From the NCBI GenBank assembly GCA_045561295.1, contig JBJKYD010000015.1, positions 1 to 49,888 of the forward strand: a stretch of 49,888 nt of DNA. Reading direction: 5' to 3'. The notes beneath the pieces were generated by a model. That model did not search any database, had not been told where the DNA came from, and saw only the letters and a program-made list of their open reading frames with translations. A program made the position numbers and the translations under genes. Below are positions 2 through 37,911 of the stretch, one piece after another; position 1 is the first letter of the stretch; every line of letters starts with the position of its first letter. The stretch is from Gammaproteobacteria bacterium. GTDB taxonomy: Bacteria > Pseudomonadota > Gammaproteobacteria > GCA-002705445 > GCA-002716945.

Positions 2-673
2 CATTCAGATCATATACTTGGATTTTCTGATATTCTAATGACCGGTTGGGTCTATCATAGGCAAAATCCATTAAATGTTTTCGGACCTCCGGGTACAATC
101 AACTTCGTCAACAGTACAATCAAATCATTCGAAGAAGACATCAAAGTAAGAAGCCTTCCTCCAGAAAAATTGAATGTAAATAATCTTAATTCAAATATAC
201 AGATTATCTTCGATGGCTATACGTATAAGAAAAATGGATTAATAATCGAAACATTTGCAGTTAAACATGAGCCATTTACATACGCATTTGGATTCAAAAT
301 TTCTAATAGTAAATATTGTATGGTGATATCTGGTGATACAACATACTCTGAACAAGTTATAGAAAAGGCAAAAGAATGTGATCTATTAATTCATGAAATT
401 GCTCATGCATCAGAGCATACACTAGAAAAATATCCTAAAGCTAAAGGAGTCATTTCTTATCATACTAATGCATCTCAAGTTTCAGAGATAATAAATACTG
501 TAAAGCCAAGACTAACAATTCTTAATCATGTTTTATCCTTAGATGGCTCGTCAGATGATGAAATATTAAATAGGATTAAAAAAAAGACTAAACATAAAGT
601 ATTAATTGCTAAAGATTTAATGACAATTGATTTAAAAGATGAAATATATATTTATAAACAAAAAAACTTATGA
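2..673 (+). CDS. MBL-fold metallo-hydrolase, RNase Z/ElaC/AtsA-like (5' partial)
   Basis: The frame is open from base 2 (HSDHILGFSDILM..., the tail of the HxHxDH motif). Downstream motifs are VKHEP, VISGDT, DLLIHE, YHT and ILNH. Confidence 0.8.
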   Translation, partial: HSDHILGFSDILMTGWVYHRQNPLNVFGPPGTINFVNSTIKSFEEDIKVRSLPPEKLNVNNLNSNIQIIFDGYTYKKNGLIIETFAVKHEPFTYAFGFKISNSKYCMVISGDTTYSEQVIEKAKECDLLIHEIAHASEHTLEKYPKAKGVISYHTNASQVSEIINTVKPRLTILNHVLSLDGSSDDEILNRIKKKTKHKVLIAKDLMTIDLKDEIYIYKQKNL

Positions 674-1467
674 CAAATATAATTGGAATTCTTAATCTTA
701 CTCTTGATAGCTTTTCTGATGGCGGAATGTACTACGACCTTGAATCTGCTAAAAAACATATTTCACAAATGATAACACAAGGTGCTGACATCATTGATAT
801 CGGGGCAGAGTCTACAAGATCAGGCTTCTCGGATGTTAATGCAGATACTCAGATTAATACACTTACACCTATTATTAAATTTATTAATAAAAATCATGAT
901 ATCAAAATAAGCATCGATACTAGATCTAGTAAAGTCATTAACGCTTTTTCTAATCAAAATATTATATTTGTAAATGATGTATCATCAGGATTTCATGATA
1001 GGGATATGCTCAAAACTGTATCGCATCTTAAATGTAATTACATTATGACTCATATGCCGGATGAGCATCAAAAAGGTCTAAATAAAAAATATAGTAATAT
1101 ACTAGATGAATTAGATATTTTTTTTAAGGAACGAATTAAATCATGTATGAATCAGGGTATAGACAAGGAAAAGATAATTATTGATCCTGGTATAGGCTTT
1201 GGGAAGTCAGGTGATGATAATGTTAAAATTTTAGAAAATATTGATGTACTTAAAAGTATTCACACCAATATTTGTATAGGCAGTAGTAATAAGAGATTTT
1301 CATCTAAACTATTTAATGGAATTGAAACTAAAGATGATTTAAATATTGCTAATCTTGCAACATTTGCTGTTAGCTCACTAAGTGGTGCGGAATATCTTCG
1401 TGTGCATGATGTAGGACTTACCAAGGATACTGTTTTAATTATTGATAAAGCAAAAGCGCATATGTGA
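670..1467 (+). CDS. folP: Dihydropteroate synthase
   Basis: GILNLTLDSFSDGG, GADIIDIGAESTR, ISIDT, VNDVS, IIIDPGIGFGK, LRVHDV. Confidence 0.9.
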   Translation: MTNIIGILNLTLDSFSDGGMYYDLESAKKHISQMITQGADIIDIGAESTRSGFSDVNADTQINTLTPIIKFINKNHDIKISIDTRSSKVINAFSNQNIIFVNDVSSGFHDRDMLKTVSHLKCNYIMTHMPDEHQKGLNKKYSNILDELDIFFKERIKSCMNQGIDKEKIIIDPGIGFGKSGDDNVKILENIDVLKSIHTNICIGSSNKRFSSKLFNGIETKDDLNIANLATFAVSSLSGAEYLRVHDVGLTKDTVLIIDKAKAHM

Positions 1468-1492
1468 AGGGAAACTGAATCTCGCCTTTCAG

Positions 1493-2083
1493 CTAGTCAT
1501 CAACAAAATTTAACCAGCCTGTTGCTATGTATTTCTCGCATTTTTCACTAATCTGTCCTCGGTGCGTATGCGTCCAATCAGTGGGCCAAAAAAGCGTTAG
1601 GCCTTTTTTAGCTGGGGAGGTAATTTTTTGATACAGGAACTCTGTCCCGCCATCAGGTACATCATTAAGGTAAGTCATCCAAACTAATATCCTTTTATTG
1701 TTAAAACTTCTCTCACAATGCCATTCTTTATAACCTTGACCAGCTTTATAGTGTTGTATATTCCAGTTACCCGTTAATGTGAAACGTTTCATGCGATTCA
1801 ACATTTTGTATTTATTTTGATATTCAGACAATGCAACGCCAAGAGCGGATATATATTTTGATATAGGCTCACTTCTTTCGTCTGGTGTAAGATGTAAATC
1901 GGTAGACTCTTTGATTTTTGTATCTATAACTGGTCCAGCATTAGTTCCACCAATAGCCCCGGGTTTTGCAGCAAGATGATTATCTTTATAATAATCTACT
2001 AGGTTGTCACATACATTTTCTGAGATGTAAAAACCTCCTATGAAACTTTCAATTGGAAAATTATGATCTTTTAGGTTTGTCAT
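1493..2083 (-). CDS. 2OG-Fe(II) oxygenase, prolyl-4-hydroxylase-like
   Basis: WHCE (HxE), WMTYLNDV..GGTEF, PTDWTHTHRG, KYIATGW. Confidence 0.85.
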   Translation of the reverse strand: MTNLKDHNFPIESFIGGFYISENVCDNLVDYYKDNHLAAKPGAIGGTNAGPVIDTKIKESTDLHLTPDERSEPISKYISALGVALSEYQNKYKMLNRMKRFTLTGNWNIQHYKAGQGYKEWHCERSFNNKRILVWMTYLNDVPDGGTEFLYQKITSPAKKGLTLFWPTDWTHTHRGQISEKCEKYIATGWLNFVDD

Positions 2084-2105
2084 TAATGAAATGCTATAAC
2101 AAATA

Positions 2106-3854
2106 TTACAAGATTCCCATCAAAGTTTGTTCAAGATTATTAGCAAATTTTTTATTATCATGAATCGTTTCAAACTTATTTTTACTAGTCAATTTATTCA
2201 CAATTCTTGACTTGACAGTATCTTCGGAACATATCTCTATGATTTTTTTCTTGTAGCTAATAATATCCTGACAACATAATTCACTTAATCCAAGAGAAAG
2301 AAGCAAACTGGTAGAGACACGAGAAGCGAAATGATTGCCTGTTTTAGTAATTACGGGCAAGCCTACTTGAAGGGCATCGGTCGTAGTTGTATGTCCATTG
2401 TATATGCTAGTATCAATTGCAACATCAGCAAGTTTTAATCTCTGTAAATGTTCTTCTCGTGAAACTTTCTCTGCAAATATCAATCTATCATCTTTAATAT
2501 TATTTTTACGTAAATATTTATATATATTCTTTTCAGCTAATTTATTATCACTTAATAACCAAAGAACTGAATTTGGCAGTTCTTTTAATATTTCAATCCA
2601 ACATTTAAATGTAGAGGCGTCTATCTTAAATGACTGATTAAAACATGCTAAAACAATTGCTTTCTCCGGCAAGAAATGTTTTTCCCTTGATGTATTTGAT
2701 TCAGAAAATTTTGATTCACCACTATTTATTTGATAACAACCCGGCATATATAAAAATTTTTCAGTGTAAAAGCTTTGATGCTCAAGAGGAGTCACAATTT
2801 GATCGGTTAAAATATAATCATAAAATTCATGACCTGAAGTCCCTGGAAATCCTAGATAAGAAATAATTTTTTTTGCTGGTCTAGATTTGATTATATCAAT
2901 TCTATTAGACGCAATAATGATTGATAAGTCTATGAGTACATCTAGATCATGTTCTTTAATGATTTGTGCCGCTGATGCATCAGTAATATCTGTTATATCT
3001 AAAAATTTATATATATCCTTTTTTAATTCTTTTTTAATTTCTTCATCATGTCGAAAAGAAAACAAGAATATTTTAAATTTAGTGGCATCGTGTGATTTAA
3101 ATAGATTTTTTATTAAATGATAAGTTGGATGATTCCTTAATTCTCCACATAGATATCCTATTTTAATTTTTTTATCTTGAGATTCAGATGATTCTATTCC
3201 TCCGCCTATCATTTCGGAATTTGATACCTCTTCTATTTTTTTACAATTTTTCTTTACATATGATTTAGCAATATTATAGTTGATCTCCAGATTATCTGTT
3301 CTACTTATTCCCATGAAGGGGTGCTCTTCTCCATTTCCTACCATGGAATCTAATTTTTTTTCTAGGATATCCATTTCAGACCAATTACATGTATTCTGAT
3401 AAAGGCTATACAGAATGATGAGGGCTTTTTCATTACTCTTATCATGCTTTAGGACAATCTTGGCATGAGTTATTGCACTTTCATAGTCACTATTCCTTTG
3501 GAGAGCTAATGCAGCATTACAGTGTGCATCAATGTAGTTTGAATCTATTGCTATGGCTTTTTTTGAACACGAAATGGCTAAGTCGATATTGTTGCTATCA
3601 AGATAAATTACTGAGAGATTATTATAGGCTTCTTTAGATTCTTCAATTTCAATAGCTTTTTTATAGTAGCTTTCAGCTTGGTCAGGACGTCCTCTGTAAT
3701 TATGTATGTTTCCTATGTTAATAATTAAAGATACCTCATTAGGGAAGATTTTTATTGCATCTAATAGTATGTTAAGCGCCGACTCGAATTTCTCTGATTG
3801 CAAGCAAATCTTAATCTCAGAAATAAATTCTGGTAAAGTCTTTTCGATACCCAT
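2106..3854 (-). CDS. TPR protein with O-GlcNAc transferase (SPINDLY/GT41) domain
   Basis: N-terminal TPRs (EAYNNL, DAHCNAALAL); KIKIGYLCGELRNHP, YLGFPGTSG, FNQSFKI, YNGHTTTTDAL, FASRV. Confidence 0.85.
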   Translation of the reverse strand: MGIEKTLPEFISEIKICLQSEKFESALNILLDAIKIFPNEVSLIINIGNIHNYRGRPDQAESYYKKAIEIEESKEAYNNLSVIYLDSNNIDLAISCSKKAIAIDSNYIDAHCNAALALQRNSDYESAITHAKIVLKHDKSNEKALIILYSLYQNTCNWSEMDILEKKLDSMVGNGEEHPFMGISRTDNLEINYNIAKSYVKKNCKKIEEVSNSEMIGGGIESSESQDKKIKIGYLCGELRNHPTYHLIKNLFKSHDATKFKIFLFSFRHDEEIKKELKKDIYKFLDITDITDASAAQIIKEHDLDVLIDLSIIIASNRIDIIKSRPAKKIISYLGFPGTSGHEFYDYILTDQIVTPLEHQSFYTEKFLYMPGCYQINSGESKFSESNTSREKHFLPEKAIVLACFNQSFKIDASTFKCWIEILKELPNSVLWLLSDNKLAEKNIYKYLRKNNIKDDRLIFAEKVSREEHLQRLKLADVAIDTSIYNGHTTTTDALQVGLPVITKTGNHFASRVSTSLLLSLGLSELCCQDIISYKKKIIEICSEDTVKSRIVNKLTSKNKFETIHDNKKFANNLEQTLMGIL

Positions 3855-3860
3855 GATTTA

Positions 3861-6617
3861 TTAGTGTTTTGTATTCTTAGAAACTTTTACAGCACAGAAT
3901 TTGAATTCTGGTATTTTAGCAAAAGGGTCTAGTGCTGCATTTGTAAGTAAGTTCGCAGCAGATTCAACATAACAAAATGGTATAAAGATTTGCCCTGGTT
4001 GCAGCATGTCATCTCTTCTTGCATAGACATCAATCTTGCCACGTCTGGATTCTACGGTTATGAGATTACCATCAACTATACCGAATTTTTCCATATCCTC
4101 CTGGCACAAATTTGCATTTGGATCGGGTTCGATTTCATGCAACATAGTTGCTCTACGAGTCATTGAGCCCGTATGCCAATGTTCCAATTGTCTTCCAGTA
4201 ATTAAAACAAACGGGTAGGAATCATCGGGAAGTTCTGCTGCATTAATAAGAGGTGATTTTACAAATTTAGCTTTGCCTGTTTCGGTAGGAAAATCGTCTA
4301 TAAATATTACAGGTTGTCCAGGGTCTTTTGAATCATCACATGGGTAAGTAATGGAATGATTCTTTTCAAGCCTATCCCATGTAATCCCTTGTATGCTTGG
4401 CATACAATCAGTCATCTCTTTAAAAATCTCTTTAGGATGTTTATAGTTCCATGTAAGACCCAATCCTCTTGCAATTTGTTGTATAATCCATAAGTCTTGT
4501 TTTGCTTCACCCGGTGGATTAACTGCTTGATTACCTAGCTGAACTCTTCGATCAGTATTTGTAAATGTACCTGTTTTTTCTGGAAAAGCAGATGCTGGAA
4601 GAATAATATCAGCATACATTGCAGTCTCTGTTAAGAAAATATCTTGTACTACAAGATGCTCTAGCTTTGAAAGTGCACTTCTTGCATGATTTAAATCAGG
4701 ATCCGACATTGCAGGATTTTCTCCCATAACATATAGGCCTTTAATTCTTCCTTTAGTAATTTCATACATAATTTCAACGACTGTTAGTCCAGGGTTTGGA
4801 TCAAGTTCAGCATCCCAAAATTTTTCAAAAAAACTATTTATCTCAGGATTATCTACTCTTTGATAGTCCGGGTAAACCATAGGTATTAATCCAGAGTCTG
4901 ACGCCCCTTGGACATTATTTTGTCCCCTTAGAGGATGTAAGCCAGTTCCTGGTCTCCCAACCTGTCCTGTCATAAGAGCTAGTGAAATTAATGCTCTCGC
5001 ATTGTCAGTACCATGAATATGTTGAGATACTCCCATTCCCCAAAAGATAATTGATGCTGACGATGATGCATAAATCTTTGCTACTTCATGAATTGTTTTA
5101 GCATCAATGCCACAAATTGATGCCATCTTTTCAGGAGTAAAATCATTTAAATGTTTTTTCAGATCTTCAAAATCAGTTGTTCTTTCTTCTATAAATTTTT
5201 TATCAATTAAATTTTGATCTATTATTGATTTCATTATGGCATTCAGAAGCGCTACGTCTGTATCAGGTTTAAATTGCAAATAATGAGTTGCGTGTCTAGA
5301 TAAATCATTTTTTCTAGGATCTAAAACTATTAAATTTTTTCCTGCTTTAGCTGCATTTTTTATGAATGTTGCTGCAACAGGATGATTTACTGTAGGATTT
5401 GCCCCGATAACGATGATTGTATCTGCTTCTGCAACATCTGCAACTTGGTTTGAAACAGCACCTGAACCAATCATTTCTAGTAGAGCCACAACAGAAGATG
5501 CATGACATAGTCTTGTACAATGATCTACATTATTATTTTTAAAACCTGTCCTTATTAGTTTTTGAAATAAATAGGCTTCTTCATTTGAACCTTTTGCACA
5601 ACCAAAACCTGCAGTTGATTTTACATCTAGATCAGTAAGTGATTTGAATTTTTCAGTAGTTCTTTCGATAGCATCTTCCCAGGAAATTGGTTCAAAATAA
5701 TCCTCTATTCTGTCTAAATTAAAATCCTCAGGTTGAATATTTTTAGTAACACCTTTTTTTCTAGCAAGAGGAACAGTTAATCTTTGCTCACTATTTACGT
5801 AATTAAATCCATATCTACCTTTTACGCATAGTCTGCTCATATTAGCAGGCCCGTCTCTTCCTTCTGCGAAAAGTATTTTGTCATCTTTGATATTATAAGT
5901 AAGCAAACAGCCCACGCCGCAATATGGACATACGCTATCAACTTTTTTATCAGGGACAACTTTCCCGATTTCTTTAGATGGCATTAGTGCACCTGTTGGG
6001 CAAGCTTGAACACACTCTCCGCAGCCGACACACGTACTAGTTCCCATAGGATCATCCAAATCAAATATAATCTCTGATGCAAGTCCTCTTTGAGCGTATC
6101 CAATGACATCATTTACTTGCTCTTCTCTACAAGCCCTTACGCATCTTGTACATTGTATGCATGCATCTAAATTTACAGCAATTGCAGGATGAGATAAGTC
6201 ATGTTTATTTTGTACTTTAGAGGGGAACCGTGTTTCTTGAACTTGAAGTTTATCTGACCAATGTTTTAGCTCAGAGTTTGGATCATACAGTTCTTTTGAT
6301 ACATCTGATTGAAGTAATTCTATTACGACTTTTTGTGAGTGAATAACTCGGTCATTATGTGTGTTAATAACCATACCATCAGATACTTTTCTAACACATG
6401 AAGGTTGAAGAGCTCTTTCTCCCTCTATCTCTACTACACAGACTCTACAGTTTCCATCAGGCCTCATTCCTTCTTTGTAACAAAGATGCGGAATTTCTAC
6501 TCCAATTCTTTTTGAGACTTCAAGAATTGTCTCATCTGTATTTGCAGAGTATTCCTCTCCATTCAATGTGATGGAACAATTAATATCAAGATTAATATCT
6601 TCAGGTTTTGCCGACAT
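3861..6617 (-). CDS. fdhF: NAD-dependent formate dehydrogenase alpha subunit (Mo/W-bis-MGD, Cys-ligated), Fdh1A-like
   Basis: N-terminal 2Fe-2S and 4Fe-4S motifs (CIQCTRC, CVGCGEC, CPYCGVGC), active site HCTRLCHASS, PLRGQNNVQG, C-terminal PEFKFCAV. Confidence 0.93.
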   Translation of the reverse strand: MSAKPEDINLDINCSITLNGEEYSANTDETILEVSKRIGVEIPHLCYKEGMRPDGNCRVCVVEIEGERALQPSCVRKVSDGMVINTHNDRVIHSQKVVIELLQSDVSKELYDPNSELKHWSDKLQVQETRFPSKVQNKHDLSHPAIAVNLDACIQCTRCVRACREEQVNDVIGYAQRGLASEIIFDLDDPMGTSTCVGCGECVQACPTGALMPSKEIGKVVPDKKVDSVCPYCGVGCLLTYNIKDDKILFAEGRDGPANMSRLCVKGRYGFNYVNSEQRLTVPLARKKGVTKNIQPEDFNLDRIEDYFEPISWEDAIERTTEKFKSLTDLDVKSTAGFGCAKGSNEEAYLFQKLIRTGFKNNNVDHCTRLCHASSVVALLEMIGSGAVSNQVADVAEADTIIVIGANPTVNHPVAATFIKNAAKAGKNLIVLDPRKNDLSRHATHYLQFKPDTDVALLNAIMKSIIDQNLIDKKFIEERTTDFEDLKKHLNDFTPEKMASICGIDAKTIHEVAKIYASSSASIIFWGMGVSQHIHGTDNARALISLALMTGQVGRPGTGLHPLRGQNNVQGASDSGLIPMVYPDYQRVDNPEINSFFEKFWDAELDPNPGLTVVEIMYEITKGRIKGLYVMGENPAMSDPDLNHARSALSKLEHLVVQDIFLTETAMYADIILPASAFPEKTGTFTNTDRRVQLGNQAVNPPGEAKQDLWIIQQIARGLGLTWNYKHPKEIFKEMTDCMPSIQGITWDRLEKNHSITYPCDDSKDPGQPVIFIDDFPTETGKAKFVKSPLINAAELPDDSYPFVLITGRQLEHWHTGSMTRRATMLHEIEPDPNANLCQEDMEKFGIVDGNLITVESRRGKIDVYARRDDMLQPGQIFIPFCYVESAANLLTNAALDPFAKIPEFKFCAVKVSKNTKH

Positions 6618-8280
6618 CTTTTACCTCATTCGAGAAGTATTTTAACACAGATTTTACAGGATTAGATGCTGCTTGACCTAGACCACATATAGAAGCATCC
6701 GACATTGTTTGACTTAAGTCTTCAAGCAGACTTATATTCCATTTTTTTTCTTTCATAAGCTCAGAAGCTTTGGATGTACCAGCTCTGCATGGAGTACATT
6801 TACCACAAGATTCATGTTTGAAAAAATCAATAGTTGTTTTTGCAGCATCCCTTGCTTTATCTTTATCAGATAGTATAACGACTGCGGCTGATCCTATGAA
6901 ACACCCATATTCTTCAAGTGTACCGAAATCTAAAGGGATATCATTCATGCTAGCTGGCAGGATACCGCCCGATGCTCCACCAGGAAAATAACCATAGAAC
7001 TCATGCCCATCTAACATGCCACCTGCATAATCATCTATTAATTCTTGAACTGTGATTCCAGCAGGAGCTAAATGTACGCCAGGTTTTTTTATTCTTCCAC
7101 TAACAGAGAAAGATCTTAGACCTTTTCTACCATTGACGCCTTGATTTGCGAACCAATCGGATCCCTTATCTAATATATCTCTTATCCAAAAAAGAGTTTC
7201 CATATTATGTTCCAATGTTGGTCTTCCAAATAAACCAACTTGTGCAACAAAAGGAGGACGGAGTCGAGGCATCCCTCTTTTGCCTTCTATAGACTCAATC
7301 ATTGCTGATTCTTCACCACATATATATGCACCAGCTCCTCGTCTCATCTCAATTTCTGGAATATCTGTGAAGTGGCTTTTGATTTTATCTATCTCCACTT
7401 CCATAATGTTTTTAACAGCCGGATATTCATCTCTTAAGTAAATATATATTTTATCAATACCTACTACTCTTGATGCTATTAACATGCCTTCAAAAAATCT
7501 ATGAGGATCTGATTCAAGATAGTACCTATCTTTAAAAGTACCTGGTTCACCTTCATCTATATTAATAGCAAGAAGTCTAGGAGCTTCTTGTTCTCTTAGT
7601 ATTCTCCATTTTCTACCAGCGGGAAAACCAGCGCCACCCAGACCTTTAAGTTCTGAGGCTTCAAGAACTTCAACAGCACTTTCATGAGAAATCTTCTCAT
7701 TAATAATTGATTCATAAATTTGATACCCACCATCAGAAATATATTTGTCTAGATCTATATAATCAGGAATCTCTGGATGAAATGCTTTGGCATCAACATT
7801 TTTTTTGATTTCTTTAAAAGTTGCATTATCGACGGGATTAAATTTCACGACAGCTGCTGGCGCAGACTGACATCTACCTATACAGGGAACTTTTTGGATT
7901 CTAACAGTGCCTTTGTAATAATCATCGAGAGTTTTTGCAAGCTCATTAGCACCATTCATTTCACACGTGACTGAGTCGCAAATTCGAACAGTAAGTGAAG
8001 GAGGTTTATCTGAATCAGTGTCTACTACATCAAAGTGATGATAAAAAGTTGCAACTTCATAAACTTCAGTTTGAGAAATACCCATGAGATTGGCTAGTGC
8101 TGTCATATAATTTTTTGTTATTGCACCTTGAGAATCCTGTATTTTATGAAGGTATTCAATCAGGTGATCTCTTCTGTATGAGGAGGTATCGAGGATAGTC
8201 TCAAGTTTACCTAAGACATCAAAATCAACTTTACGACCTCTCGGCCTCAGAGTAATTTTATTCTTGAGTGTTTTTTTCAT
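6601..8280 (-). CDS. Formate dehydrogenase beta subunit, NuoE-NuoF fusion (2Fe-2S + FMN/NADH + 4Fe-4S), Fdh1B-like
   Basis: CDSVTC..CIGRC, LKGLGGAGFP, DEGEPGTFKDR, GAGAYICGEE, ESCGKCTPCR, SICGLG; overlaps the alpha subunit start. Confidence 0.9.
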   Translation of the reverse strand: MKKTLKNKITLRPRGRKVDFDVLGKLETILDTSSYRRDHLIEYLHKIQDSQGAITKNYMTALANLMGISQTEVYEVATFYHHFDVVDTDSDKPPSLTVRICDSVTCEMNGANELAKTLDDYYKGTVRIQKVPCIGRCQSAPAAVVKFNPVDNATFKEIKKNVDAKAFHPEIPDYIDLDKYISDGGYQIYESIINEKISHESAVEVLEASELKGLGGAGFPAGRKWRILREQEAPRLLAINIDEGEPGTFKDRYYLESDPHRFFEGMLIASRVVGIDKIYIYLRDEYPAVKNIMEVEIDKIKSHFTDIPEIEMRRGAGAYICGEESAMIESIEGKRGMPRLRPPFVAQVGLFGRPTLEHNMETLFWIRDILDKGSDWFANQGVNGRKGLRSFSVSGRIKKPGVHLAPAGITVQELIDDYAGGMLDGHEFYGYFPGGASGGILPASMNDIPLDFGTLEEYGCFIGSAAVVILSDKDKARDAAKTTIDFFKHESCGKCTPCRAGTSKASELMKEKKWNISLLEDLSQTMSDASICGLGQAASNPVKSVLKYFSNEVKDVGKT

Positions 8281-8376
8281 GGTATTTATTTCCTTCCCTG
8301 GTAACTATACACAATTATATGTTCTTTATATAATGATTCAAGCTGACATAAATTAATATAATAAGGAGAGAGCATT

Positions 8377-29622: not shown

Positions 29623-29664
29623 GCTACGTTCGTTTATTAATAAACATAAATATAGGAGATAATA

Positions 29665-30194: not shown

Positions 30195-30228
30195 AGAAAG
30201 AGCTGGCTACTTGCCAGCTCTTTTTTTT
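30195..30228. terminator. Terminator between the convergent fae and orf17 genes, probably bidirectional
   Basis: AGAAAGAGCTGGC-TACTT-GCCAGCTC followed by T8; overlaps the orf17 stop codon. Confidence 0.8.
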
Positions 30229-30884
30229 ATTAGAAATGAATTTTTATAATTTTTAAATAGTAGTGAAGATACTAACACTCCAGAGAACCCCATAGCCTCT
30301 AGCTTATTAATATCAAATGTAGATTTTATTCCACCACCCACGTAATATTGAATTGAACTTTTTTTACTCATTGAGCGAATATATTTATAATCTGGACCTT
30401 TATCATTACCCACGTCAGCTATATTCATAAAAATAATTTTATTTTTATATGAAGAATCAAAATTTTTAAAACTATCTAAACCTAGTAATTTATTCTTGTA
30501 GTCATATGAATGAATATAATTTTTATATATATAATTAATATTTTTAATAGATAAACAATTTTCACTACATAATATTGGTTCAATATTCCTCTTAGCTAAA
30601 CGTTGATCGATTTTTCCTCCAATATCTACCCAAAAATGAATATTTTTATTCACACTTGCAATGTCCTTTATTAAATCAATATTATGATTTTCACTTATCA
30701 GTGAATTAATATCTGCAATATAAAATATGGAAGGACGATAAATTTTAGTCATTTCTTTTATAAACTTAAATGGATCCGATGAAAAGCCAGAATCCTTACT
30801 GATAGGGTGGTATCTGTCTCTATCACCTTGTTTAGCTTTAACAACTTTACCGTCTTTTATATCAATTGCAGGTATAATGTTCAT
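30207..30884 (-). CDS. HisA/HisF-related TIM-barrel protein (Orf17-like)
   Basis: IIPAIDIKDGKVVKA..GDRD.Y.P, YIAD, WVD.G, VGGGI. Confidence 0.85.
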   Translation of the reverse strand: MNIIPAIDIKDGKVVKAKQGDRDRYHPISKDSGFSSDPFKFIKEMTKIYRPSIFYIADINSLISENHNIDLIKDIASVNKNIHFWVDIGGKIDQRLAKRNIEPILCSENCLSIKNINYIYKNYIHSYDYKNKLLGLDSFKNFDSSYKNKIIFMNIADVGNDKGPDYKYIRSMSKKSSIQYYVGGGIKSTFDINKLEAMGFSGVLVSSLLFKNYKNSFLIKKRAGK

Positions 30885-31806
30885 GATGAAAAAAATTCTT
30901 ATATATGAGTATATTACAGGCGGAGGTTTGATAGGAAAAAAATTTGATCATAGTCTACTTTCGGAAGCTAATCTAATAATAGATTCACTCATTAGCAAGA
31001 CAGACAGCATTGTAAACTTTTTTTGTGACTATCGTTATAAGTATAAAAATAATAAGAACGCTATCCTTATTACTGCTAATAATCATAGCATCATCTATGA
31101 TACTGACATGATAAACTCTTATGATTATTTCTTACCAATTTGTCCAGAATCAGATTTAATACTATATAACTATATTAAGGAAATAAATCCATATGTTGAT
31201 AATATGAAAATTTCATCTCCCAAAACTATTTTAGTAACAAGTGATAAATTATTATTAAAAGATATTTGTAATAGATATAATATTTCACATGCAGACTCTT
31301 ATATTTCAAAATCAAAACAATCATTATATATAATCAAAGATAGATTCGGATGTGGTTGTAATAATGTTAGAGTCACTAGTAATAAGAATTTAGAAATTCC
31401 AGCAAATCGAATAATTGAAAAATATATTCCTGGTGATTCATATAGCGTTAATCTTTATATATCTGATACAGGGTATGAAATACTTACAATTAATCAACAA
31501 ATAATTAACAGATACAATAATGTTCTTAAGTTGGATGCTATCAATGTGAATATCTATCCATATTTTAGAAATTCACTTTTTAAATTTATTGAAGGGATTT
31601 TAGTAGCTCTTCCTGGCTTAAAGGGGTTTATAGGTTTCGATTTGATTTATAATAAAGAAGGTTTATTTTTGATAGATATCAATCCTAGATATACAACTTC
31701 TATGTCTGCAATTAGTAAATGTAAAGATAGACATATACTTGACTACATTAATATATCAAAGAATGAACAAACTGGATCATCATGCAAAATAAAGCTGCAA
31801 GTATAA
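30883..31806 (+). CDS. ATP-grasp protein, Orf1/MfnD-like (tyramine-glutamate ligase family)
   Basis: ILIYEYITGGG, ICPESD, SDK, K.RFGCGC, LPGLKGFIGFD, DINPRYTTS. Confidence 0.8.
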   Translation: MMKKILIYEYITGGGLIGKKFDHSLLSEANLIIDSLISKTDSIVNFFCDYRYKYKNNKNAILITANNHSIIYDTDMINSYDYFLPICPESDLILYNYIKEINPYVDNMKISSPKTILVTSDKLLLKDICNRYNISHADSYISKSKQSLYIIKDRFGCGCNNVRVTSNKNLEIPANRIIEKYIPGDSYSVNLYISDTGYEILTINQQIINRYNNVLKLDAINVNIYPYFRNSLFKFIEGILVALPGLKGFIGFDLIYNKEGLFLIDINPRYTTSMSAISKCKDRHILDYINISKNEQTGSSCKIKLQV

Positions 31807-32825
31807 CTAAAATAGGTTGGGATATAGGTGGTGCCCACCTAAAATATTGCGTCATATCTAGTGACTCAGACATTATATGGTATGACATTATTGATTTTGA
31901 ATTTTGGAAGGAATATAAAAAATTCAAAAATATAGTAATAAAGATAAACTCAATTTATAGTAAAAAAAACCATCATACTGAAAACTATTTTACAATGTCA
32001 GCAGAAATGTGTGATTGTTTTGATAATAGGGCTGATGGCGTTGATTATATTGTTAAACAAATTATAGAAAGTAAGTATCCATCATATATCTTTACTAAAA
32101 ATGGCTTTCAAAATTCATTAAAGATAAATAAAGCCTCATTTAAATATATAGGCTCATTTAATTGGTACGCAACTGCATTGTATATATCCTCTTTATTTTC
32201 TGACATTATAGCTATTGATTTTGGTTCGACCACATGCGATTTTCTAATTATAAAAAATGGAAAAATTAAAAATAAAAGAACATCAGATATAACTGGCTTA
32301 CAATCCCATGAACTTCTATATACTGGTTGTGCACGCACACCTATATATGCACACACTAATGAAATAACATACAAAAATAAGATTTATAAGATAATACCGG
32401 AACAATTTTCTTCTATGTCTGATATTTACGTTATTTTGGATAAGTTACCTGTCGATGATATATATTCTAAAGCACTAAATATGAATGACCATTCTAAAAT
32501 AAATGCATGTAAGAGAATATCTAGATCATTTGGCTTTGATTTTGCATATAATAAATTAGATTTGATTAAGAATTTATCGAAACAAATATATGATTCTCAG
32601 ATTAAGTTAATTGAAAATAATATTTTATTTCACAAGAGAAAACATTTTAATGAGGATAAAAAATTAGATATTATGGGATTAGGATTAGGATATAGAGCAA
32701 TATCACATATCGGTCAAAAAAATAATCTTAATCATATAGATATTAACAATATCTTGGAGATGGAAATTGACAGAGGTTCTGAGTTAACAAAATTATTTTC
32801 ATCGTATGTAATGTGTAGGTTATAA
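31782..32825 (+). CDS. Hydantoinase/oxoprolinase-fold protein, Orf9/MfnF-like
   Basis: IGWDIGGAHLK, TMSAEMCDCF..R..GV, NW.A, DFGSTTCD, ELLYTG..RTP. Confidence 0.85.
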   Translation: MQNKAASITKIGWDIGGAHLKYCVISSDSDIIWYDIIDFEFWKEYKKFKNIVIKINSIYSKKNHHTENYFTMSAEMCDCFDNRADGVDYIVKQIIESKYPSYIFTKNGFQNSLKINKASFKYIGSFNWYATALYISSLFSDIIAIDFGSTTCDFLIIKNGKIKNKRTSDITGLQSHELLYTGCARTPIYAHTNEITYKNKIYKIIPEQFSSMSDIYVILDKLPVDDIYSKALNMNDHSKINACKRISRSFGFDFAYNKLDLIKNLSKQIYDSQIKLIENNILFHKRKHFNEDKKLDIMGLGLGYRAISHIGQKNNLNHIDINNILEMEIDRGSELTKLFSSYVMCRL

Positions 32826-34163
32826 ATGACATATAAAATTGAACAACTAGATTTTTCAATACCCTCCCATAAATATTTTGAATTTATAAAAAATAATGAT
32901 TGGTCTATATATCTTAACAGCAATAATGATAAATATCCTGATCAAAGATTTGATATCTTAACTTCTGACCCACTTGAAAAAATTATCTTGGATGATGATA
33001 TATCTAATAATCAATCTTTTAATAGTGATATCTTTTCTTCTTTGAAGAATGCGATGGAAAAATATAAATGTGAATCTAAGGATGATATTCCTTTTTGTGG
33101 GGGAGCTATGGGTTTTATTTCATATGATTATGGTAATAAACTTCACAATATTGAAAATAAAAATAATAAAGATTTCCAATATCCTTTGATAGCTTTTGGT
33201 ATCTATGATTGGTGCATAATTTATGATTATTTAAAAAGAAAATCATTTATCTTGTATCATCAAAAAAATAAACTAATTGATAGCATATTAAAATTATCAA
33301 TTAGCCAGCTATCTTTAAATGAATCAGAATCATTTAACTGTACATCTAGATGTGAATCTAATATGAATTATGATTTATATCATGCAAAATTATCTAAAAT
33401 TATGAACTACATTAAAAGAGGCGATTGTTATCAAGTCAATCTTGCTCAAAGATTTTCTCTTGGATTTGAAGGTGATGAATATTCAATATATAAGACATTA
33501 ACCAAATCATTCGCGTCACCATATTCAGCGTTTATGAATTATCCATTTGGTAAGATTTTATCATTTTCACCGGAGAGATTTTTATCTATAAATAATGGAG
33601 TTGTTGAAACAAAACCTATTAAAGGGACGAGACCAATATCTATTGATCCAGTAATTGATAAAAAAAATATCAAAGAATTAAAAACATCAGAAAAAGATAA
33701 AGCTGAAAATCTTATGATTGTTGATTTACTGAGAAATGATTTAGGTATGAATTGTAAAAATGGAAGTATAAAAGTCGATAAGCTTTTTGAGATTGAGACA
33801 TTTGCAAATGTTCATCACCTTGTCAGCACTATAAGTGGTGAAGTAGATAATGATTCAAATATATATAATCTGATCAAAGATGCTTTTCCTGGTGGCTCCA
33901 TCACTGGAGCTCCCAAGCTTAGATCTATGGAGATAATCGAAGAGTTAGAGCCGAATAACAGGTCAATTTATTGTGGAAGCATTGGTTATATTGGCTTCGA
34001 TGAAAAAACTGATTTAAATATTTCAATTAGAACTATGCTTGCAGTTAACAAGAATTTATATTTTTGGGGCGGAGGAGGTATCGTAAACGATTCTGATATA
34101 AGGAGCGAATATAATGAATCAATTGATAAAGTTAAACCGCTTCTTGATACATTTTCTGATTAA
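32826..34163 (+). CDS. pabB: Aminodeoxychorismate synthase component I
   Basis: PFCGGAMGFISYD, GDCYQVNL, SPERF, KPIKGTRP, AENLMIVDLLRND, FPGGSITGAPK. Confidence 0.92.
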   Translation: MTYKIEQLDFSIPSHKYFEFIKNNDWSIYLNSNNDKYPDQRFDILTSDPLEKIILDDDISNNQSFNSDIFSSLKNAMEKYKCESKDDIPFCGGAMGFISYDYGNKLHNIENKNNKDFQYPLIAFGIYDWCIIYDYLKRKSFILYHQKNKLIDSILKLSISQLSLNESESFNCTSRCESNMNYDLYHAKLSKIMNYIKRGDCYQVNLAQRFSLGFEGDEYSIYKTLTKSFASPYSAFMNYPFGKILSFSPERFLSINNGVVETKPIKGTRPISIDPVIDKKNIKELKTSEKDKAENLMIVDLLRNDLGMNCKNGSIKVDKLFEIETFANVHHLVSTISGEVDNDSNIYNLIKDAFPGGSITGAPKLRSMEIIEELEPNNRSIYCGSIGYIGFDEKTDLNISIRTMLAVNKNLYFWGGGGIVNDSDIRSEYNESIDKVKPLLDTFSD

Positions 34164-34845
34164 TATTTTTTATTATTTTTATAATATTTTGACATTGAAT
34201 TGACTCAATATTATCTCTTGAATTAGGTGAACATAACGCACCCCTGAATCCAATAAAATCAGACTTAAATTTCATTGCATATTCAATAGTATTTTGTTGC
34301 ATAGAGCCAGAGAGTCCACAAAACTTTTTTATCTTATGACATTCTGAAACAAAAGAGTTTATTAAATTATCATCCATAATATCGAGAGTTGATTTACTAG
34401 ATTTCTTAACTGTATCTATCATTAGACCATCATAGTCAAGTTTACATATTTTTTTTATTATGTTGATGTCAATATTGTTATCCGCAAATAAAACACCTAC
34501 AGTTTTAATATTTAAATTAAATGCTTTTTTCAAAAATATCGAATGCATATCAAGATAATTTATATCAAATATCCCAATTTTAATATAATCAATTTTTGAA
34601 GAGTTTAGAAACTCTAGTCTTTCATAAATGATATCTTTATTTGGATGATCACTATTTCCAGCAGTAACACTTAATATTCTATTATTGAGTTCATTAGAAA
34701 TAAGCTCGACTTCTTTATTTCCTACATATCCTAAGGGACCATCATCAATATTTTTTATATCAATTATATCAAAATCATAATCAGCCATAAGCGAAGCCTC
34801 TTTGATATTTTTGATACTAGCTAGAGATTTAATCATTATTTTCAA
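34132..34845 (-). CDS. (5-formylfuran-3-yl)methyl phosphate synthase-like (MfnB/DUF556)
   Basis: LAS....EA, DIIDIKN...GPLG, YIKIG, VLFAD, MIDT..K, GLSGS, GFRGALC. Confidence 0.8.
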   Translation of the reverse strand: MKIMIKSLASIKNIKEASLMADYDFDIIDIKNIDDGPLGYVGNKEVELISNELNNRILSVTAGNSDHPNKDIIYERLEFLNSSKIDYIKIGIFDINYLDMHSIFLKKAFNLNIKTVGVLFADNNIDINIIKKICKLDYDGLMIDTVKKSSKSTLDIMDDNLINSFVSECHKIKKFCGLSGSMQQNTIEYAMKFKSDFIGFRGALCSPNSRDNIESIQCQNIIKIIKNINQKMYQEAV

Positions 34846-35404
34846 AGTAGATATTTATCTTTTTCTCTATCCATTCCCAAGCTTCTTTTTCATTTTTACC
34901 AGCAGTTTTATCAATTCCAATTTTTAGGTATTTCATCTCATCCCTAATTTTATTATCATCAATTCTCCCAAGACGTGTTGAGAGTACTGCTAATTCTATA
35001 ACAGAAAACTGAGCTCTATTGAAACCCAAAAACGGTCTATGGATTTGTTCGTTGATAACTTCACATATAATTCTTGGCCTTACAGGATCGTCATGATCTT
35101 CAATCGCTTTAACATTCATGTGTGTATTTGTATTTTGAAGGTGAGGAGCACATTTATCATCAAATACTTCTAGCTCCCAATCTTTTTTTTCTCCAGTAAC
35201 TATTCCGGAAAAAACTTTAACATTATCTATAAAATTTACTGTAGCGATTTTTGTTTCTAAAATATTATTTAAAGTTTGAGACGGCTTGAAAGGTGAAATC
35301 TGTACTAATTTTTTTGAATCAGACTGAAGAAATTTCACACCCATCGGAGCAATATGTACTTTTTTATCTTTATTGATTGTAGTGACGATTACTTCGTGAA
35401 TCAT
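34829..35404 (-). CDS. DUF447 family protein (H4MPT-cluster associated)
   Basis: IHEVIVTT..HIAPMG, PFKPS.TL.N, GFNRAQ..VIE.AVL.TRL, IDKTAG..E.EAW.W. Confidence 0.85.
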   Translation of the reverse strand: MIHEVIVTTINKDKKVHIAPMGVKFLQSDSKKLVQISPFKPSQTLNNILETKIATVNFIDNVKVFSGIVTGEKKDWELEVFDDKCAPHLQNTNTHMNVKAIEDHDDPVRPRIICEVINEQIHRPFLGFNRAQFSVIELAVLSTRLGRIDDNKIRDEMKYLKIGIDKTAGKNEKEAWEWIEKKINIYFENND

Positions 35405-36783
35405 TTTCTTTTCTTAAATGTTGGTCCCAATTCTTTAGACTGTAATTTATTATCTGCCTTTTTGTCTATCAAACAACCCCAATCTAACTCTTCATCCTGT
35501 GAGTACTCTTTTCTTAATTGATATGCAATTTGTGCTCTAGCAAGCTCAACACCTAAATAAAATGAGTGCCCTGAATCTTCATCTACTTCTAGGAATTCAT
35601 AAAAATCATAAGGATCTGAAAATACTTTATAAATCGTTTTATTGAATAGATGCACTCCATCATCATTTACATATATACGATAATTCTTATCCTTTATATT
35701 GCTTTTCATATCACTTAATTCATCAGACGTGTAAGCATAATCTTTATGGCCATGATTTATTAATAAGCCATTATTGATATGCTTTGGAGTAATATTATTC
35801 TCTGATGCTGCATGGATTATTCTCCTTGCCAAATCAGTTTCTCTAATTACTGTTGAACAATGTCTACTTACTTGTGTAGTAAGAATATGATTCAATTTTA
35901 ATTCTTCAACTATACCAAGCATTATCATATTCATACCGGAGGTATCAGCATGTGTGAGCTCAGTTATATTTCCTATCCCAATCATAATATGTATGTCAGG
36001 ATACTTTTCTCTTAAGTAGATATACCTCTCTATGCTCTTAGTGAAGCCATAAGAAATAGGGTCCAGTATTGGATCAGCTATGAAAGTAAGTTTATCTTGT
36101 ACTGCTCTATCAATGAGCTTGTAGAAATTCGGCATATTGTTATCTGTTGGAATGAGAACAGGGTATGAATCTAAATTTTCCAATATGTGATAAGTCTCAT
36201 CTTTTATACTTAGCAAATAATCTGCCCCTGCTTTTGAGCCTCTAATTAGTTCTTCAGTATTGTGGGAGTCTATGCTTACATAAAAGTTTCTATTTTTTAG
36301 CTCTTGCACTATTTCTTCCAAGTGAGGAAATTTTTTATTTGGCAAGCAGCCAATATCAATTACATCAGCACCCTCCAATCTAAAATATTCAGCTCTTTTG
36401 ATTACTTCCTCGACTGTCATATTTAAAGCATCAGTAATTTCTCCAAATATAGATGTTTCAAATTTCGATAAATCATATTTTACAGGACTAGCACCAAAAA
36501 GTGTGGGCAAGTCCTTTAGTTCATCAGGACCGCGTATTATTTTTTTGTTAATATTTTCTTTCAAAGATTCTAAGTCACCACGAACTCTTCCTGGGATAAT
36601 AATTTCATCAAAAGAATCTATATTTCCTATTCTTCTCTCAATCATGTCTGTTGTAAGTAAAGCAGCAACATTTACATTTAGATTTCTTATCTCATATGTA
36701 AAATCTTTATTTTCGATAGATTCAATAACTGTTCTTAATCCTTTCTCTGCTAACTTACCCGTAATAAATAATATATTTTTCAT
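35401..36783 (-). CDS. Dihydropteroate synthase-like pterin-binding protein (Orf20-like; methanopterin biosynthesis)
   Basis: LFITGKLA, VAALLT, GP.ELKDLP, GADVIDIGCLP, DPILDPI..GF, GN.TELT.AD, HSFYLGVELARAQIA..L..Y.QDE.L.WG. Confidence 0.87.
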   Translation of the reverse strand: MKNILFITGKLAEKGLRTVIESIENKDFTYEIRNLNVNVAALLTTDMIERRIGNIDSFDEIIIPGRVRGDLESLKENINKKIIRGPDELKDLPTLFGASPVKYDLSKFETSIFGEITDALNMTVEEVIKRAEYFRLEGADVIDIGCLPNKKFPHLEEIVQELKNRNFYVSIDSHNTEELIRGSKAGADYLLSIKDETYHILENLDSYPVLIPTDNNMPNFYKLIDRAVQDKLTFIADPILDPISYGFTKSIERYIYLREKYPDIHIMIGIGNITELTHADTSGMNMIMLGIVEELKLNHILTTQVSRHCSTVIRETDLARRIIHAASENNITPKHINNGLLINHGHKDYAYTSDELSDMKSNIKDKNYRIYVNDDGVHLFNKTIYKVFSDPYDFYEFLEVDEDSGHSFYLGVELARAQIAYQLRKEYSQDEELDWGCLIDKKADNKLQSKELGPTFKKRK

Positions 36784-37310
36784 TTATTTAGTTTCTTAAG
36801 GCTCGTTTTTAATGCTTTCACATTATCAACAACGGTTACATTTTTAAACTTTTTTAATGTTTTATAGTTTTTTAAATCTATATCTCTTGGATATAGAGTC
36901 ACAAGCTTTTTAGGTGCTTGAGTTATAACAACAGGCTCGGTATCACATGCAAAAACTAAAGAATGGACTTCACATTTTCCTGCCTGTGCAAACATATTAG
37001 TCACCAAATTAGTTGAAATACCCTGTGCCATTAATGCAATAGTGTTAGAAGTAGCTGGTGAGATAACAATCAATTTATAAACTGACTCATATAAAAGGCT
37101 AACTGGGGCAGAACTAGATGTTATATCTTTGAATATTTTTATCTTCTTCTTTTTAAAGGTTGATAAATCATAGTTGTACCATTTTAATACTTCCTCACCA
37201 GCTTTACTTAAATATAAATCAACATTCTCAAGTGTAAGCAACAATTCTATTGATTCTTTTAGATAGTGACCAGAACCGGTTATACACCATGCAATCTTTT
37301 TTTTATCCAT
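36780..37310 (-). CDS. AfpA/DmrB-like flavoprotein (probable dihydromethanopterin reductase)
   Basis: AWCITGSGH, PATSNT.A, LVTNMFAQAGK, FACDT, PR.IDL.N. Confidence 0.82.
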   Translation of the reverse strand: MDKKKIAWCITGSGHYLKESIELLLTLENVDLYLSKAGEEVLKWYNYDLSTFKKKKIKIFKDITSSSAPVSLLYESVYKLIVISPATSNTIALMAQGISTNLVTNMFAQAGKCEVHSLVFACDTEPVVITQAPKKLVTLYPRDIDLKNYKTLKKFKNVTVVDNVKALKTSLKKLNK

Positions 37311-37911
37311 ATATTTTACTTATTAACTCTTTATTTATTTCTATATCTTCTTTTGAATTTATATTTAAGAACATTTCATTATCATGATTAAATAATACTT
37401 CATCAAATCCACATGAAGTATACCATTTATCGATCTTTCTCTCCCCTGATTGTAGGAATTCTTGGAGATTATTAGCTAAAGATGAATCTATGTAAGCATA
37501 TACTGGCTGTAATCTATCACCAGTTCTAATTACTTTTATTGAGCTATTTCCAGTATGATTAAGCAGGGTTTCAAAATATGCTTTATTTACAAAAGGCCCG
37601 TCACATGGCAATACTACTAACTTATGGTTTTTACATTTTTTAAGAGCTGTGTATATACCTGAGAGAGGTCCCTGGAAATCATCTAAGATATCTGTATATA
37701 CCTGCTTATGTATTTTTTCATATTCTTTGAGGTTGTTATTTGCTATCACAAATACATCTGATGAGAATTCACTTGCTATACTGATAATCCTTGAAAGCAC
37801 TAATTTGCCATTGAACCTTATTAATCCTTTGTCTTCACCTTCCATTCGTGATGATTTGCCACCAGCTAAGATTGCAACTGATACATCATCCTTTTGTAAT
37901 TTGTGTGACAT
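37303..37911 (-). CDS. mobA: Molybdenum cofactor guanylyltransferase
   Basis: ILAGGKSSRM.GEDKG, FQGPLSGI, PCDGP, FLNIN. Confidence 0.9.
   Translation of the reverse strand: MSHKLQKDDVSVAILAGGKSSRMEGEDKGLIRFNGKLVLSRIISIASEFSSDVFVIANNNLKEYEKIHKQVYTDILDDFQGPLSGIYTALKKCKNHKLVVLPCDGPFVNKAYFETLLNHTGNSSIKVIRTGDRLQPVYAYIDSSLANNLQEFLQSGERKIDKWYTSCGFDEVLFNHDNEMFLNINSKEDIEINKELISKIYG

Follow-up and report, generated by a model that had tools for sequence, protein, structure and literature searches.

Introduction

Dimethyl sulfide (DMS) is the principal sulfur gas of biological origin that the sea emits, and its consumption by bacteria controls how much of it escapes. DmoA, which together with DmoB of Hyphomicrobium sulfonivorans turns DMS, O2 and NAD(P)H into methanethiol and formaldehyde, is a soluble, FMNH2-dependent enzyme. 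Methyl groups are also hydroxylated by the xylene monooxygenase XylM/XylA, which occurs with the XylN channel in TOL-type upper pathways, and a gene island for formaldehyde oxidation via tetrahydromethanopterin (H4MPT) is known from methylotrophs, the Methylobacterium extorquens type. Here we analyze a stretch of 49,888 nucleotides (in the following, the window) from a gammaproteobacterial assembly (GCA_045561295.1, contig JBJKYD010000015.1), in which a gene module built around an AlkB/XylM-like membrane hydroxylase is joined to the methanethiol oxidase gene mtoX, to an H4MPT island and to formate dehydrogenase (FDH) genes. In our best reading, in which the first step is inferred, the DNA comes from an uncultured, low-GC marine gammaproteobacterium (GC of the window 0.26–0.40, mean ~0.32) with a conserved chromosomal island that would oxidize volatile methylated sulfur to CO2. 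The proposed first reaction is that of DmoA/DmoB, such that the module, if the DMS reading is right, represents a non-homologous replacement of DmoA.

DMS-degrading Methylophaga species provide a further point of reference. According to passages of PMC6548844, these bacteria are without dmoA, and their primary DMS enzyme is described there as unidentified and thought to be a methyltransferase; the authors add that "a hydrolase or monooxygenase" might exist. A section of a 2022 paper (PMC9563715) likewise gives the Methylophaga DMS enzyme as unidentified, and DmoA is the sole listed enzyme for the conversion of DMS to methanethiol in the relevant part of a 2026 review (PMC13360808). Our literature search, which covered few subscription journals, found no proposal of an AlkB-like DMS monooxygenase. 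A second, unrelated enzyme family would, if present in very abundant planktonic bacteria, change which organisms count as DMS consumers.

Results and discussion

A candidate DMS monooxygenase module next to mtoX

The overall best explanation of the locus, to which we assign a rough probability of 0.58, is that the hydroxylase module is a new DMS monooxygenase feeding MtoX. Three observations point to DMS as the substrate. The neighboring genes encode MtoX and Fae/MtdB/Mch/Fhc/FDH, which consume the predicted products methanethiol and formaldehyde; members of the hydroxylase family are found in the two Methylophaga species whose common DMS route is described as unidentified; and the same-named gene of M. 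thiooxydans is DMS-induced along with genes resembling the partners of the hydroxylase in the module. Conversion of DMS to methanethiol by the hydroxylase is, in our estimate, somewhat better than an even bet. In themselves, MtoX, the H4MPT island and FDH are ordinary; what is new is their union with an AlkB/XylM-like module of unusual composition and, as we infer from synteny together with a published transcriptome, the case for a second, non-homologous DMS monooxygenase.

Proteins of the window were compared with Pfam (47 open reading frames, ORFs) and NCBIfam (38), and negative statements on enzyme families refer to the window ORFs of at least 80 residues (47 proteins, Pfam). Relatives of the hydroxylase gene were collected by scanning one genome per species; the best 80 of 204 stretches were kept and correspond to 79 loci, all from uncultured Gammaproteobacteria, with about 10 kb of readable context on each side of the alkB-like gene. 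Using tblastn with the window proteins, we sorted these loci into group A (19 loci, hydroxylase 87–100% identical to the window protein), group B (16 loci, 69–79%) and group C (44 loci, 61–67%). DmoA itself was rejected as the identity of the oxygenase, there being no flavin-dependent (luciferase-like) monooxygenase domain in the 47 window proteins.

The hydroxylase gene (9586–10818, plus strand) encodes a predicted membrane di-iron enzyme of 410 residues that matches Pfam FA_desaturase. The longest ORF begins at 9475; we place the start at the ATG at 9586, which stands behind a GGAGG, and homologues begin with MIGN. Its nearest solved structures are those of AlkB, 8sbb (E 6e-29) and 8f6t (E 5.5e-26), with the histidine boxes aligned. 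The core aligns over ~240 residues and the HELxH, HxxxHH, NYxEHYG and DHH motifs are common to both proteins, whereas the E-values reach only 1e-26 to 1e-29 and the N-terminal 118 residues are unmatched. In the window protein, the motifs read HELSH, HVYNHH, NYLEHYG and DHH, and a Gln replaces the first His of the AlkB 'RHSDHH' box in 19 of 19 aligned family members. The electron supply also differs: instead of the rubredoxin AlkG and the reductase AlkT that accompany AlkB, the window encodes a Fer2-FAD-NAD reductase and a Fer4_19 protein, and no rubredoxin or rubredoxin reductase is found in it. A single hydroxylase cluster at 90% identity comprises 2784 sequences. As a side observation, the ESM Atlas cluster containing the exact hydroxylase is labeled 'Viruses 83%, Uroviricota' from 6 members of known phylum, a label that may reflect mis-binned or phage-carried copies.

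Two small genes follow on the same strand. The first encodes a 59-residue, single-cluster ferredoxin-like protein (10949–11128; Pfam Fer4_19, E 6.8e-17). The second (11166–11817, delineated from ORFs and from DNA alignment to the group-A locus L032, and split in the window into 11166–11405 and 11374–11817) encodes a protein of the glutathione S-transferase (GST) fold with an invariant Cys. When compared with the PDB, a profile of 11 homologues retrieved phi-class GSTs and SspA, with 5f06 as the best match (E 2e-16), and a model predicted with AlphaFold (AF2; mean confidence, pLDDT, 85) gave only GST, SspA and FzlA as top folds, with template modeling (TM) scores of 0.61–0.67. In the alignment with the phi-class enzyme 5f06, the invariant Cys19 takes the place of the catalytic Ser in its P-x-S motif. 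The subfamily is small, comprising 14 representatives at E ≤ 1e-30 among 1.84 billion sequences. It is our guess that the GST-like protein performs thiol chemistry on the hemithioacetal or else on adducts of methanethiol; a complex prediction with the hydroxylase scored 0.01 against a mark of 0.32 and is uninformative either way.

Behind a terminator-like hairpin (11842–11870, plus strand; 13-bp stem, then a T run) lies the gene for a Fer2-FAD-NAD(P)H reductase of the XylA/BenC/MmoC architecture (11942–13042, plus strand; Pfam Fer2, FAD_binding_6 and NAD_binding_1), to which the BenC, AntC and MmoC models of NCBIfam match below their cut-offs. It is followed by a gene for a 90-residue, two-helix membrane protein (13173–13445, plus strand), which matched no Pfam or NCBIfam family and is 87–100% identical in 15 group-A loci, and by the gene for an outer-membrane channel of the FadL/TodX family (13570–15156, plus strand). 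The latter assignment comes from profile comparison with the PDB (CymD 7.8e-12, TbuX 2.7e-09, TodX 4.9e-09) and from a structural model of moderate quality (pLDDT 59.5), for which the top 24 Foldseek matches were all FadL, TodX, TbuX or CymD. On its own, the window channel misses Pfam Toluene_X, which a 39%-identical homologue at the L051 locus matches at 2.3e-12. A further terminator-like hairpin (15201–15232, plus strand; 13-bp stem) separates the channel gene from mtoX. Upstream of the hydroxylase, reductase, channel and mtoX genes, the search for a common motif yielded only weak repeats of chance quality, and promoter-like sites were fewer than in shuffled sequences (33 vs 43.7).

Taken as a whole, the module shares with XylM/XylA/XylN a membrane hydroxylase of the FA_desaturase/AlkB family, a single Fer2-FAD-NAD reductase and a FadL/TodX-family channel, a likeness to XylM that is one of architecture and of an automatic Atlas name rather than of direct sequence comparison. 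In contrast to XylM/XylA, it additionally comprises the Fer4_19 protein, the Cys-type GST-like protein and the 90-residue membrane protein, and it is flanked by one-carbon (C1) and sulfur genes and not by benzyl alcohol or benzaldehyde dehydrogenases.

Predicted oxidation of methanethiol and formaldehyde

The gene downstream of the channel (15268–16629, plus strand) encodes MtoX, predicted to be a periplasmic, Cu-dependent methanethiol oxidase. Its match to the NF052453 equivalog (709 bits vs a cut-off of 650) establishes the family assignment at equivalog level; in addition, the protein matches Pfam SBP56 (E 3e-46) and carries a hydrophobic N-terminal leader in translation. Adjoining mtoX, as in known MtoX contexts, is a gene for a SCO1-MauG fusion (16779–18770, plus strand; Pfam CCP_MauG and SCO1-SenC), followed by one for a TlpA-like thiol-disulfide oxidoreductase (18770–19351, plus strand; Pfam AhpC-TSA). 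Parts of PMC5739008 and PMC6548844 describe a SCO1/MauG/TlpA-type trio beside mtoX, and the mtoX clusters of Hyphomicrobium sp. VS and M. thiooxydans given there likewise have mtoX, then the SCO1-MauG fusion and the TlpA-like gene. In contrast, the M. thiooxydans mto clusters, as presented in sections of PMC6548844, contain pdo, sqr and sulP, none of which stands next to mtoX in the window. Unlike both of these clusters, the window combines mtoX with a monooxygenase module and with H4MPT genes.

The H4MPT route of formaldehyde oxidation is complete in the window, with fae, mtdB, mch and fhcABCD all matched. The formyltransferase/hydrolase complex genes fhcC, fhcD, fhcA and fhcB (19357–23949, minus strand; NCBIfam) include two above their cut-offs, fhcD (TIGR03119, 425 vs 293) and fhcA (TIGR03121, 708 vs 393), and two below, fhcC (TIGR03122, 120 vs 131) and fhcB (TIGR03129, 184 vs 328). 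On the opposite strand (24012–30177; Pfam and NCBIfam) follow an mptG-like gene (24012), mtdB (24963), an ATP-grasp gene, mch (26894), an MptN-like ligase gene (27859), a CitG-like gene (28735) and fae (29665); mch and fae exceed their equivalog cut-offs (TIGR03120, 406 vs 229; TIGR03126, 234 vs 118), the mtdB match is to Pfam Mpt_N only, and Pfam RimK and CitG were also matched in this segment. Formate oxidation is represented upstream of the hydroxylase by an NAD-type FDH alpha subunit (3861–6617, minus strand; TIGR01591, 757 bits vs 666) and a beta subunit that is a NuoE/NuoF fusion (6601–8280, minus strand; Complex1_51K, 2Fe-2S_thioredx and NADH_4Fe-4S domains). An alpha subunit of the type carrying the molybdenum bis-pyranopterin guanine dinucleotide (Mo-bisPGD) cofactor is thus combined with a NuoE/F-like diaphorase, as in FdsA/FdsB-type enzymes. 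Operation of the MtoX/H4MPT/FDH route is, in our view, highly probable.

Compared to the M. extorquens-type island, the window shares fae, mtdB, mch, fhcCDAB, mptG, the ATP-grasp ligases and the DHPS (dihydropteroate synthase)-like, DUF447 and flavoprotein genes. It differs in its low GC and in packing in FDH, mobA, pabB, folP and methyl-sulfur genes, and its 50 kb contain no methanol or methylamine dehydrogenase: neither PQQ dehydrogenase nor methylamine dehydrogenase, hexulose-phosphate synthase or serine-cycle families found a match among the 47 window proteins.

In the route that we propose, DMS would enter through the outer-membrane channel, whose family is clear and whose substrate is predicted, and one of its methyl groups would be hydroxylated by the AlkB/XylM-like enzyme in the inner membrane. 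Electrons would pass from NAD(P)H via the XylA-like reductase, and possibly via the 59-residue Fer4_19 protein, to the hydroxylase. The hemithioacetal product would give methanethiol and formaldehyde. Periplasmic MtoX, matured by SCO1, SCO1-MauG and TlpA, would turn methanethiol into formaldehyde, sulfide and H2O2; the formaldehyde would pass to formate via Fae, MtdB, Mch and Fhc, assigned by family, and the NAD-linked FDH, likewise assigned by family, would release CO2. H4MPT, methanofuran and Mo-bisPGD would be supplied by the products of neighboring genes.

An initial annotation of this DNA had described positions 670–37911 as a self-contained cluster leading from methylated sulfur to CO2. 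The gene classes that it named all lie where it had placed them according to Pfam and NCBIfam, its list having missed the Fer4_19, GST-like and 90-residue proteins, and we agree that genes for methanol or methylamine oxidation and for the ribulose monophosphate (RuMP) and serine-cycle pathways are absent from the window. Its energy balance, two formaldehyde per DMS and four NAD(P)H gained against one spent, follows arithmetically from the proposed route. For the route itself, the MtoX, H4MPT and FDH families bear it out, while the first step, with DMS as the substrate of an AlkB/XylM-like hydroxylase, stays a prediction. The cluster is, however, not self-contained: sqr/sox/pdo, catalase and peroxiredoxin genes to handle the sulfide and peroxide made by MtoX are lacking in the window, and the GST-like gene is frameshifted. 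The further view of the annotation, a streamlined organism that uses methylated sulfur mainly for energy, concerns the whole genome and stays conjectural.

Links to DMS-degrading Methylophaga

The hydroxylase family includes WP_218153271.1 of Methylophaga sulfidovorans and EEF81234.1/WP_008290017.1 of M. thiooxydans, the latter named 'Fatty acid desaturase domain protein'. Both are 63% identical to the window hydroxylase over 384–394 residues. DMS serves M. thiooxydans as a carbon source for growth, with methanethiol as an intermediate, as stated in passages of PMC6548844, and transcripts of cells grown on DMS vs methanol are listed in Table S6 of the same study. For the 'Fatty acid desaturase domain protein' (226), the values are 1359 on DMS vs 10 on methanol, an induction of about 136-fold. 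The table gives comparable contrasts for an 'aromatic hydrocarbon degradation' membrane protein of the TodX family (906; 1469 vs 18), an 'Oxidoreductase, NAD-binding domain' (61; 618 vs 12), glbN (199; 601 vs 21), Sco1/SenC (140; 454 vs 12) and an unannotated hypothetical protein (2348 vs 15), alongside the two mtoX genes (768, 17350 vs 37; 211, 4064 vs 20). In the portions of the PMC6548844 supplements that were covered, six short peptide motifs of the module had no match, which is uninformative, and glutathione-type wording occurs only on unrelated proteins.

The DMS-induced set mirrors the gene order alkB-like/globin/Fer4_19/GST-like/reductase found in 10 of the 44 group-C loci, in which the hydroxylase and Fer4_19 genes are separated by one for a truncated (group I) globin (for example at L050:11276–11638). 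We see an even chance that the module represents a previously unrecognised, non-flavin DMS monooxygenase system that is the 'missing' primary enzyme of Methylophaga and is also carried, in one island with MtoX, the H4MPT route and FDH, by a lineage of marine gammaproteobacteria that is abundant, streamlined and akin to sponge symbionts.

Conservation and phylogeny of the island

Eleven of the 19 group-A loci reach at least 7 kb downstream of the hydroxylase gene, the other eight ending before mtoX. In tblastn comparisons, all 11 have the window order of Fer4_19, GST-like, reductase, 90-residue protein, mtoX, SCO1/mauG, tlpA and fhcC, and the channel gene is listed in each of them (10 of 11 under a stricter coverage filter). 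FDH lies upstream in 16 of the 19 loci, the remaining three being cut short. The order persists even where the metallo-β-lactamase (MBL)-fold protein and FolP encoded at the left end of the window are only 44–51% identical. At the nucleotide level, the window is collinear with the L032 contig, which is from a different strain, at 94.7% identity over 3886–13880 and 82.7% over 14010–17467, bar one variable cassette. We also observed that the channel-mtoX stretch is more diverged from L032 than the flanking 10 kb, with the channel protein 74% identical, compared to 100% for the hydroxylase and the reductase.

These comparisons bear on the possibility that the contig is an assembly chimera, or that the monooxygenase block was recently inserted into a conventional methylotroph. 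GC content would be compatible with such an event, being 0.36–0.40 over 9–16 kb as opposed to 0.26–0.32 over 23–38 kb, but FDH, which lies outside the block, has a similarly raised GC. Moreover, the 11 long relatives with the same order were assembled in different projects from single cells and metagenomes, and the window is collinear with L032 at 83–95% nucleotide identity. Because of the conserved order and the collinearity with L032, a chimera or recent insertion is excluded for the window lineage, and we regard its residual probability as negligible. Both a chimeric contig and a recent unlinked insertion had been named in the initial annotation as what would overturn it. The block that it described is upheld in that the order is conserved in 11 of 11 loci and has to be amended in that two unrelated, strain-variable genes interrupt it at 1493–3854. 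We are almost certain that the island is real and vertically inherited.

Beyond group A, the module is kept in part. Of the 19 group-A loci, 18 have a Fer4_19 gene and 16 the pairing of hydroxylase and reductase; in group C, the corresponding numbers are 12 and 20 of 44. Among the 44 group-C loci, 28 have the GST-like gene directly downstream of the hydroxylase and 18 the channel gene; judged by gene neighborhood, the GST-like protein is the most faithful partner of the hydroxylase. Group-C sources comprise sponge symbionts (Ca. Porisulfidus, Oxydemutatoraceae), Thiotrichales and Cocleimonas, and in the Cocleimonas locus L050 the module adjoins FDH alpha and beta genes whose products are 61% identical to the window FDH. 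On one sponge-associated chromosome (OZ245760.1; L062, L064 and L066) we noticed three copies of the hydroxylase. A separate peculiarity concerns L062, L067 and L069, where ~4 kb downstream of the hydroxylase there is a distant match to FDH alpha (24% identity), with a reductase after it; the Pfam scan of L062 revealed a molybdopterin oxidoreductase and an FNR-Fer4 reductase, with the usual module partners absent.

Group B represents a second paralog in group-A genomes, located among ribosomal-protein, ammonium-transporter and other housekeeping genes. This paralog is without a reductase, GST-like or channel partner and has an FA_hydroxylase gene nearby (L018-L031, L034, L035; for example L024:10007–11200). 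In a quick maximum-likelihood tree of the hydroxylases (74 rows, without L028, L034, L035, L037, L038, L057, L062 and L069, which had a short high-scoring segment, an X or a stop), groups A and B form sister clades (SH-aLRT 99), with sponge-symbiont sequences as the next branch. Contigs of relatives measure 780–937 kb, which is compatible with a small genome and is no proof regarding assimilation.

Weighing the DMS assignment

A number of observations weigh against the hydroxylase being a DMS monooxygenase. Its metal site may differ from that of AlkB, because Gln stands in place of the first His of the last box in each of the 19 aligned members. The GST-like gene, a single intact ORF of 216 residues in 16 of 16 group-A loci reaching it and in every relative examined, is frameshifted in the window by a 1-nt insertion near 11382 relative to L032, the break reflecting an error of the assembly or, alternatively, a genuine pseudogene in the window strain. 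The two strong terminator-like hairpins suggest three transcription units, consisting of the hydroxylase, the reductase/channel and the mtoX genes. Within 10 kb of the hydroxylase, mtoX was found in 0 of 44 group-C and 0 of 16 group-B loci; since the adjacency is thus confined to one lineage, it amounts to effectively one evolutionary event. The Methylophaga proteins are not the nearest relatives of the window hydroxylase in the tree, and the link of MDMS009_226 to EEF81234.1 goes through the identical product name, not a locus tag. Passages of PMC6548844 further report that proteins of the tetrahydrofolate (H4F) pathway are up on DMS, and quote Boden et al. 2010 for finding no DMS monooxygenase activity in M. 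thiooxydans extracts and favoring a methyltransferase.

Alternatively, the module may oxidize a different small hydrophobic compound, such as a short alkane, an alkene (isoprene, with epoxide opening by GST), a methyl halide, a methyl ether or another thioether; its adjacency to C1 genes would then mean that this substrate, too, yields a C1 product, or that it is a lineage-specific chance. Source databases annotate the family as 'alkane 1-monooxygenase' and the Atlas as 'xylene monooxygenase hydroxylase component', and the channel belongs to the TodX/CymD/TbuX family of hydrocarbon channels. Isoprene and alkene routes use GSTs, and L050 and L037 have one to three GST genes alongside that of the hydroxylase; a TodX-type channel and GSTs are equally suited to a hydrocarbon or alkene. 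The lack of mtoX near the distant group-C hydroxylases points the same way. On the other hand, the block lacks genes for alcohol and aldehyde dehydrogenases as well as for CoA ligases and CoA transferases, the M. thiooxydans member, or a protein of the same name, is strongly DMS-induced along with SCO1, a globin, a reductase and a porin of the TodX type, and adjacency to FDH recurs in Cocleimonas. We judge another substrate to be unlikely, though a serious contender.

With DMS as the substrate, the product might still be dimethyl sulfoxide (DMSO). AlkB-type omega-hydroxylase reportedly catalyzes aliphatic sulfoxidation, as named in the title of Katopodis et al. 1988, a reference of PMC9830989, and a hydroxylase that oxygenates the DMS sulfur in this manner would serve detoxification or co-oxidation, with MtoX acting on methanethiol from dimethylsulfoniopropionate (DMSP) demethylation or from methionine. 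The same title, however, names ether demethylation as well, which provides a chemical precedent for the proposed reaction on DMS. DMSO would feed neither MtoX nor the formaldehyde route, and the growth of M. thiooxydans on DMS proceeds via methanethiol according to the cited passages of PMC6548844, rendering sulfoxidation improbable.

The M. thiooxydans study offers yet another reading, in that the induced desaturase was interpreted by its authors, in the pertinent part of PMC6548844, as serving membrane repair. Transferred to the window, the FA_desaturase-family protein would modify membrane lipids against H2O2 derived from MtoX or against thiol stress, and the position of the group-B paralog close to an FA_hydroxylase gene among housekeeping genes would be in keeping with such a role. 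Yet the motifs and the nearest solved structures are those of AlkB and not of acyl-lipid desaturases, and a lipid desaturase would have no use for a reductase of its own, a ferredoxin-like protein and a hydrocarbon channel in the outer membrane, whose genes stand here in conserved order; we hold this function to be very improbable.

Should the hydroxylase indeed act as a DMS monooxygenase, the lineage would be an unrecognised oceanic DMS sink that is invisible to marker-gene surveys based on dmoA, ddhA and tmm. A question open since 2010 would be answered, with candidate genes in culturable strains (WP_008290017.1 and WP_218153271.1).

Other genes of the island and its flanks

The window begins within a gene for an MBL-fold hydrolase (2–673, plus strand; Pfam Lactamase_B_2, E 1.3e-08), whose 5' end lies beyond it. 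Its stop overlaps by four bases with the start of folP, encoding dihydropteroate synthase (670–1467, plus strand; TIGR01496, 237 bits vs a cut-off of 163), and the pair is kept in relatives, which hints at a common role in pterin metabolism.

Next comes the variable cassette (1493–3854, minus strand; Pfam), composed of genes for a 2-oxoglutarate (2OG)-Fe(II) oxygenase (1493–2083) and a glycosyltransferase with tetratricopeptide repeats (TPR/GT41; 2106–3854). The oxygenase gene was found in 0 of the 79 relative loci, nucleotide matches of the cassette to L032, L001 and L002 are weak or none, and L032, which represents the closest strain, carries another GT41-like gene (38% identity) between folP and FDH (window 1468–3885). 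Judging from these comparisons, the cassette is a strain-variable interruption that stands outside the predicted pathway.

Between FDH and the hydroxylase are two genes. One is for a pterin-4a-carbinolamine dehydratase-like protein (8377–8748, plus strand; Pfam Pterin_4a, E 7.6e-23) and the other for a SCO1/SenC copper chaperone (8752–9336, minus strand; Pfam SCO1-SenC, E 2.3e-35), the latter divergent from the hydroxylase gene. The dehydratase-like gene is found between FDH and SCO1 in all group-A loci covering the site, with 76–98% identity, and may relate to Mo-cofactor or pterin metabolism.

Cofactor genes assigned by Pfam and NCBIfam occupy 30207–37911: HisA/F-like (30207), MfnD-like (30877), MfnF-like (31782), pabB (32826), MfnB-like (34132), DUF447 (34829), DHPS-like (35401), an AfpA/DmrX-like flavoprotein (36780) and mobA (37303). 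pabB (TIGR00553, 352 vs 328) and mobA (TIGR02665, 163 vs 152) score above their cut-offs, most of the other cofactor genes below. Past 37911 follow dusA, a methyltransferase gene, rnpB (39742–40070) and the dcw cell-division cluster; tRNA genes were not found in the 49.9-kb window. Within this last segment, an FtsZ-family gene (42082–43227; Tubulin and FtsZ_C domains, 381 residues) is located between ftsL and ftsI, the usual place of such a gene being the end of the dcw cluster.

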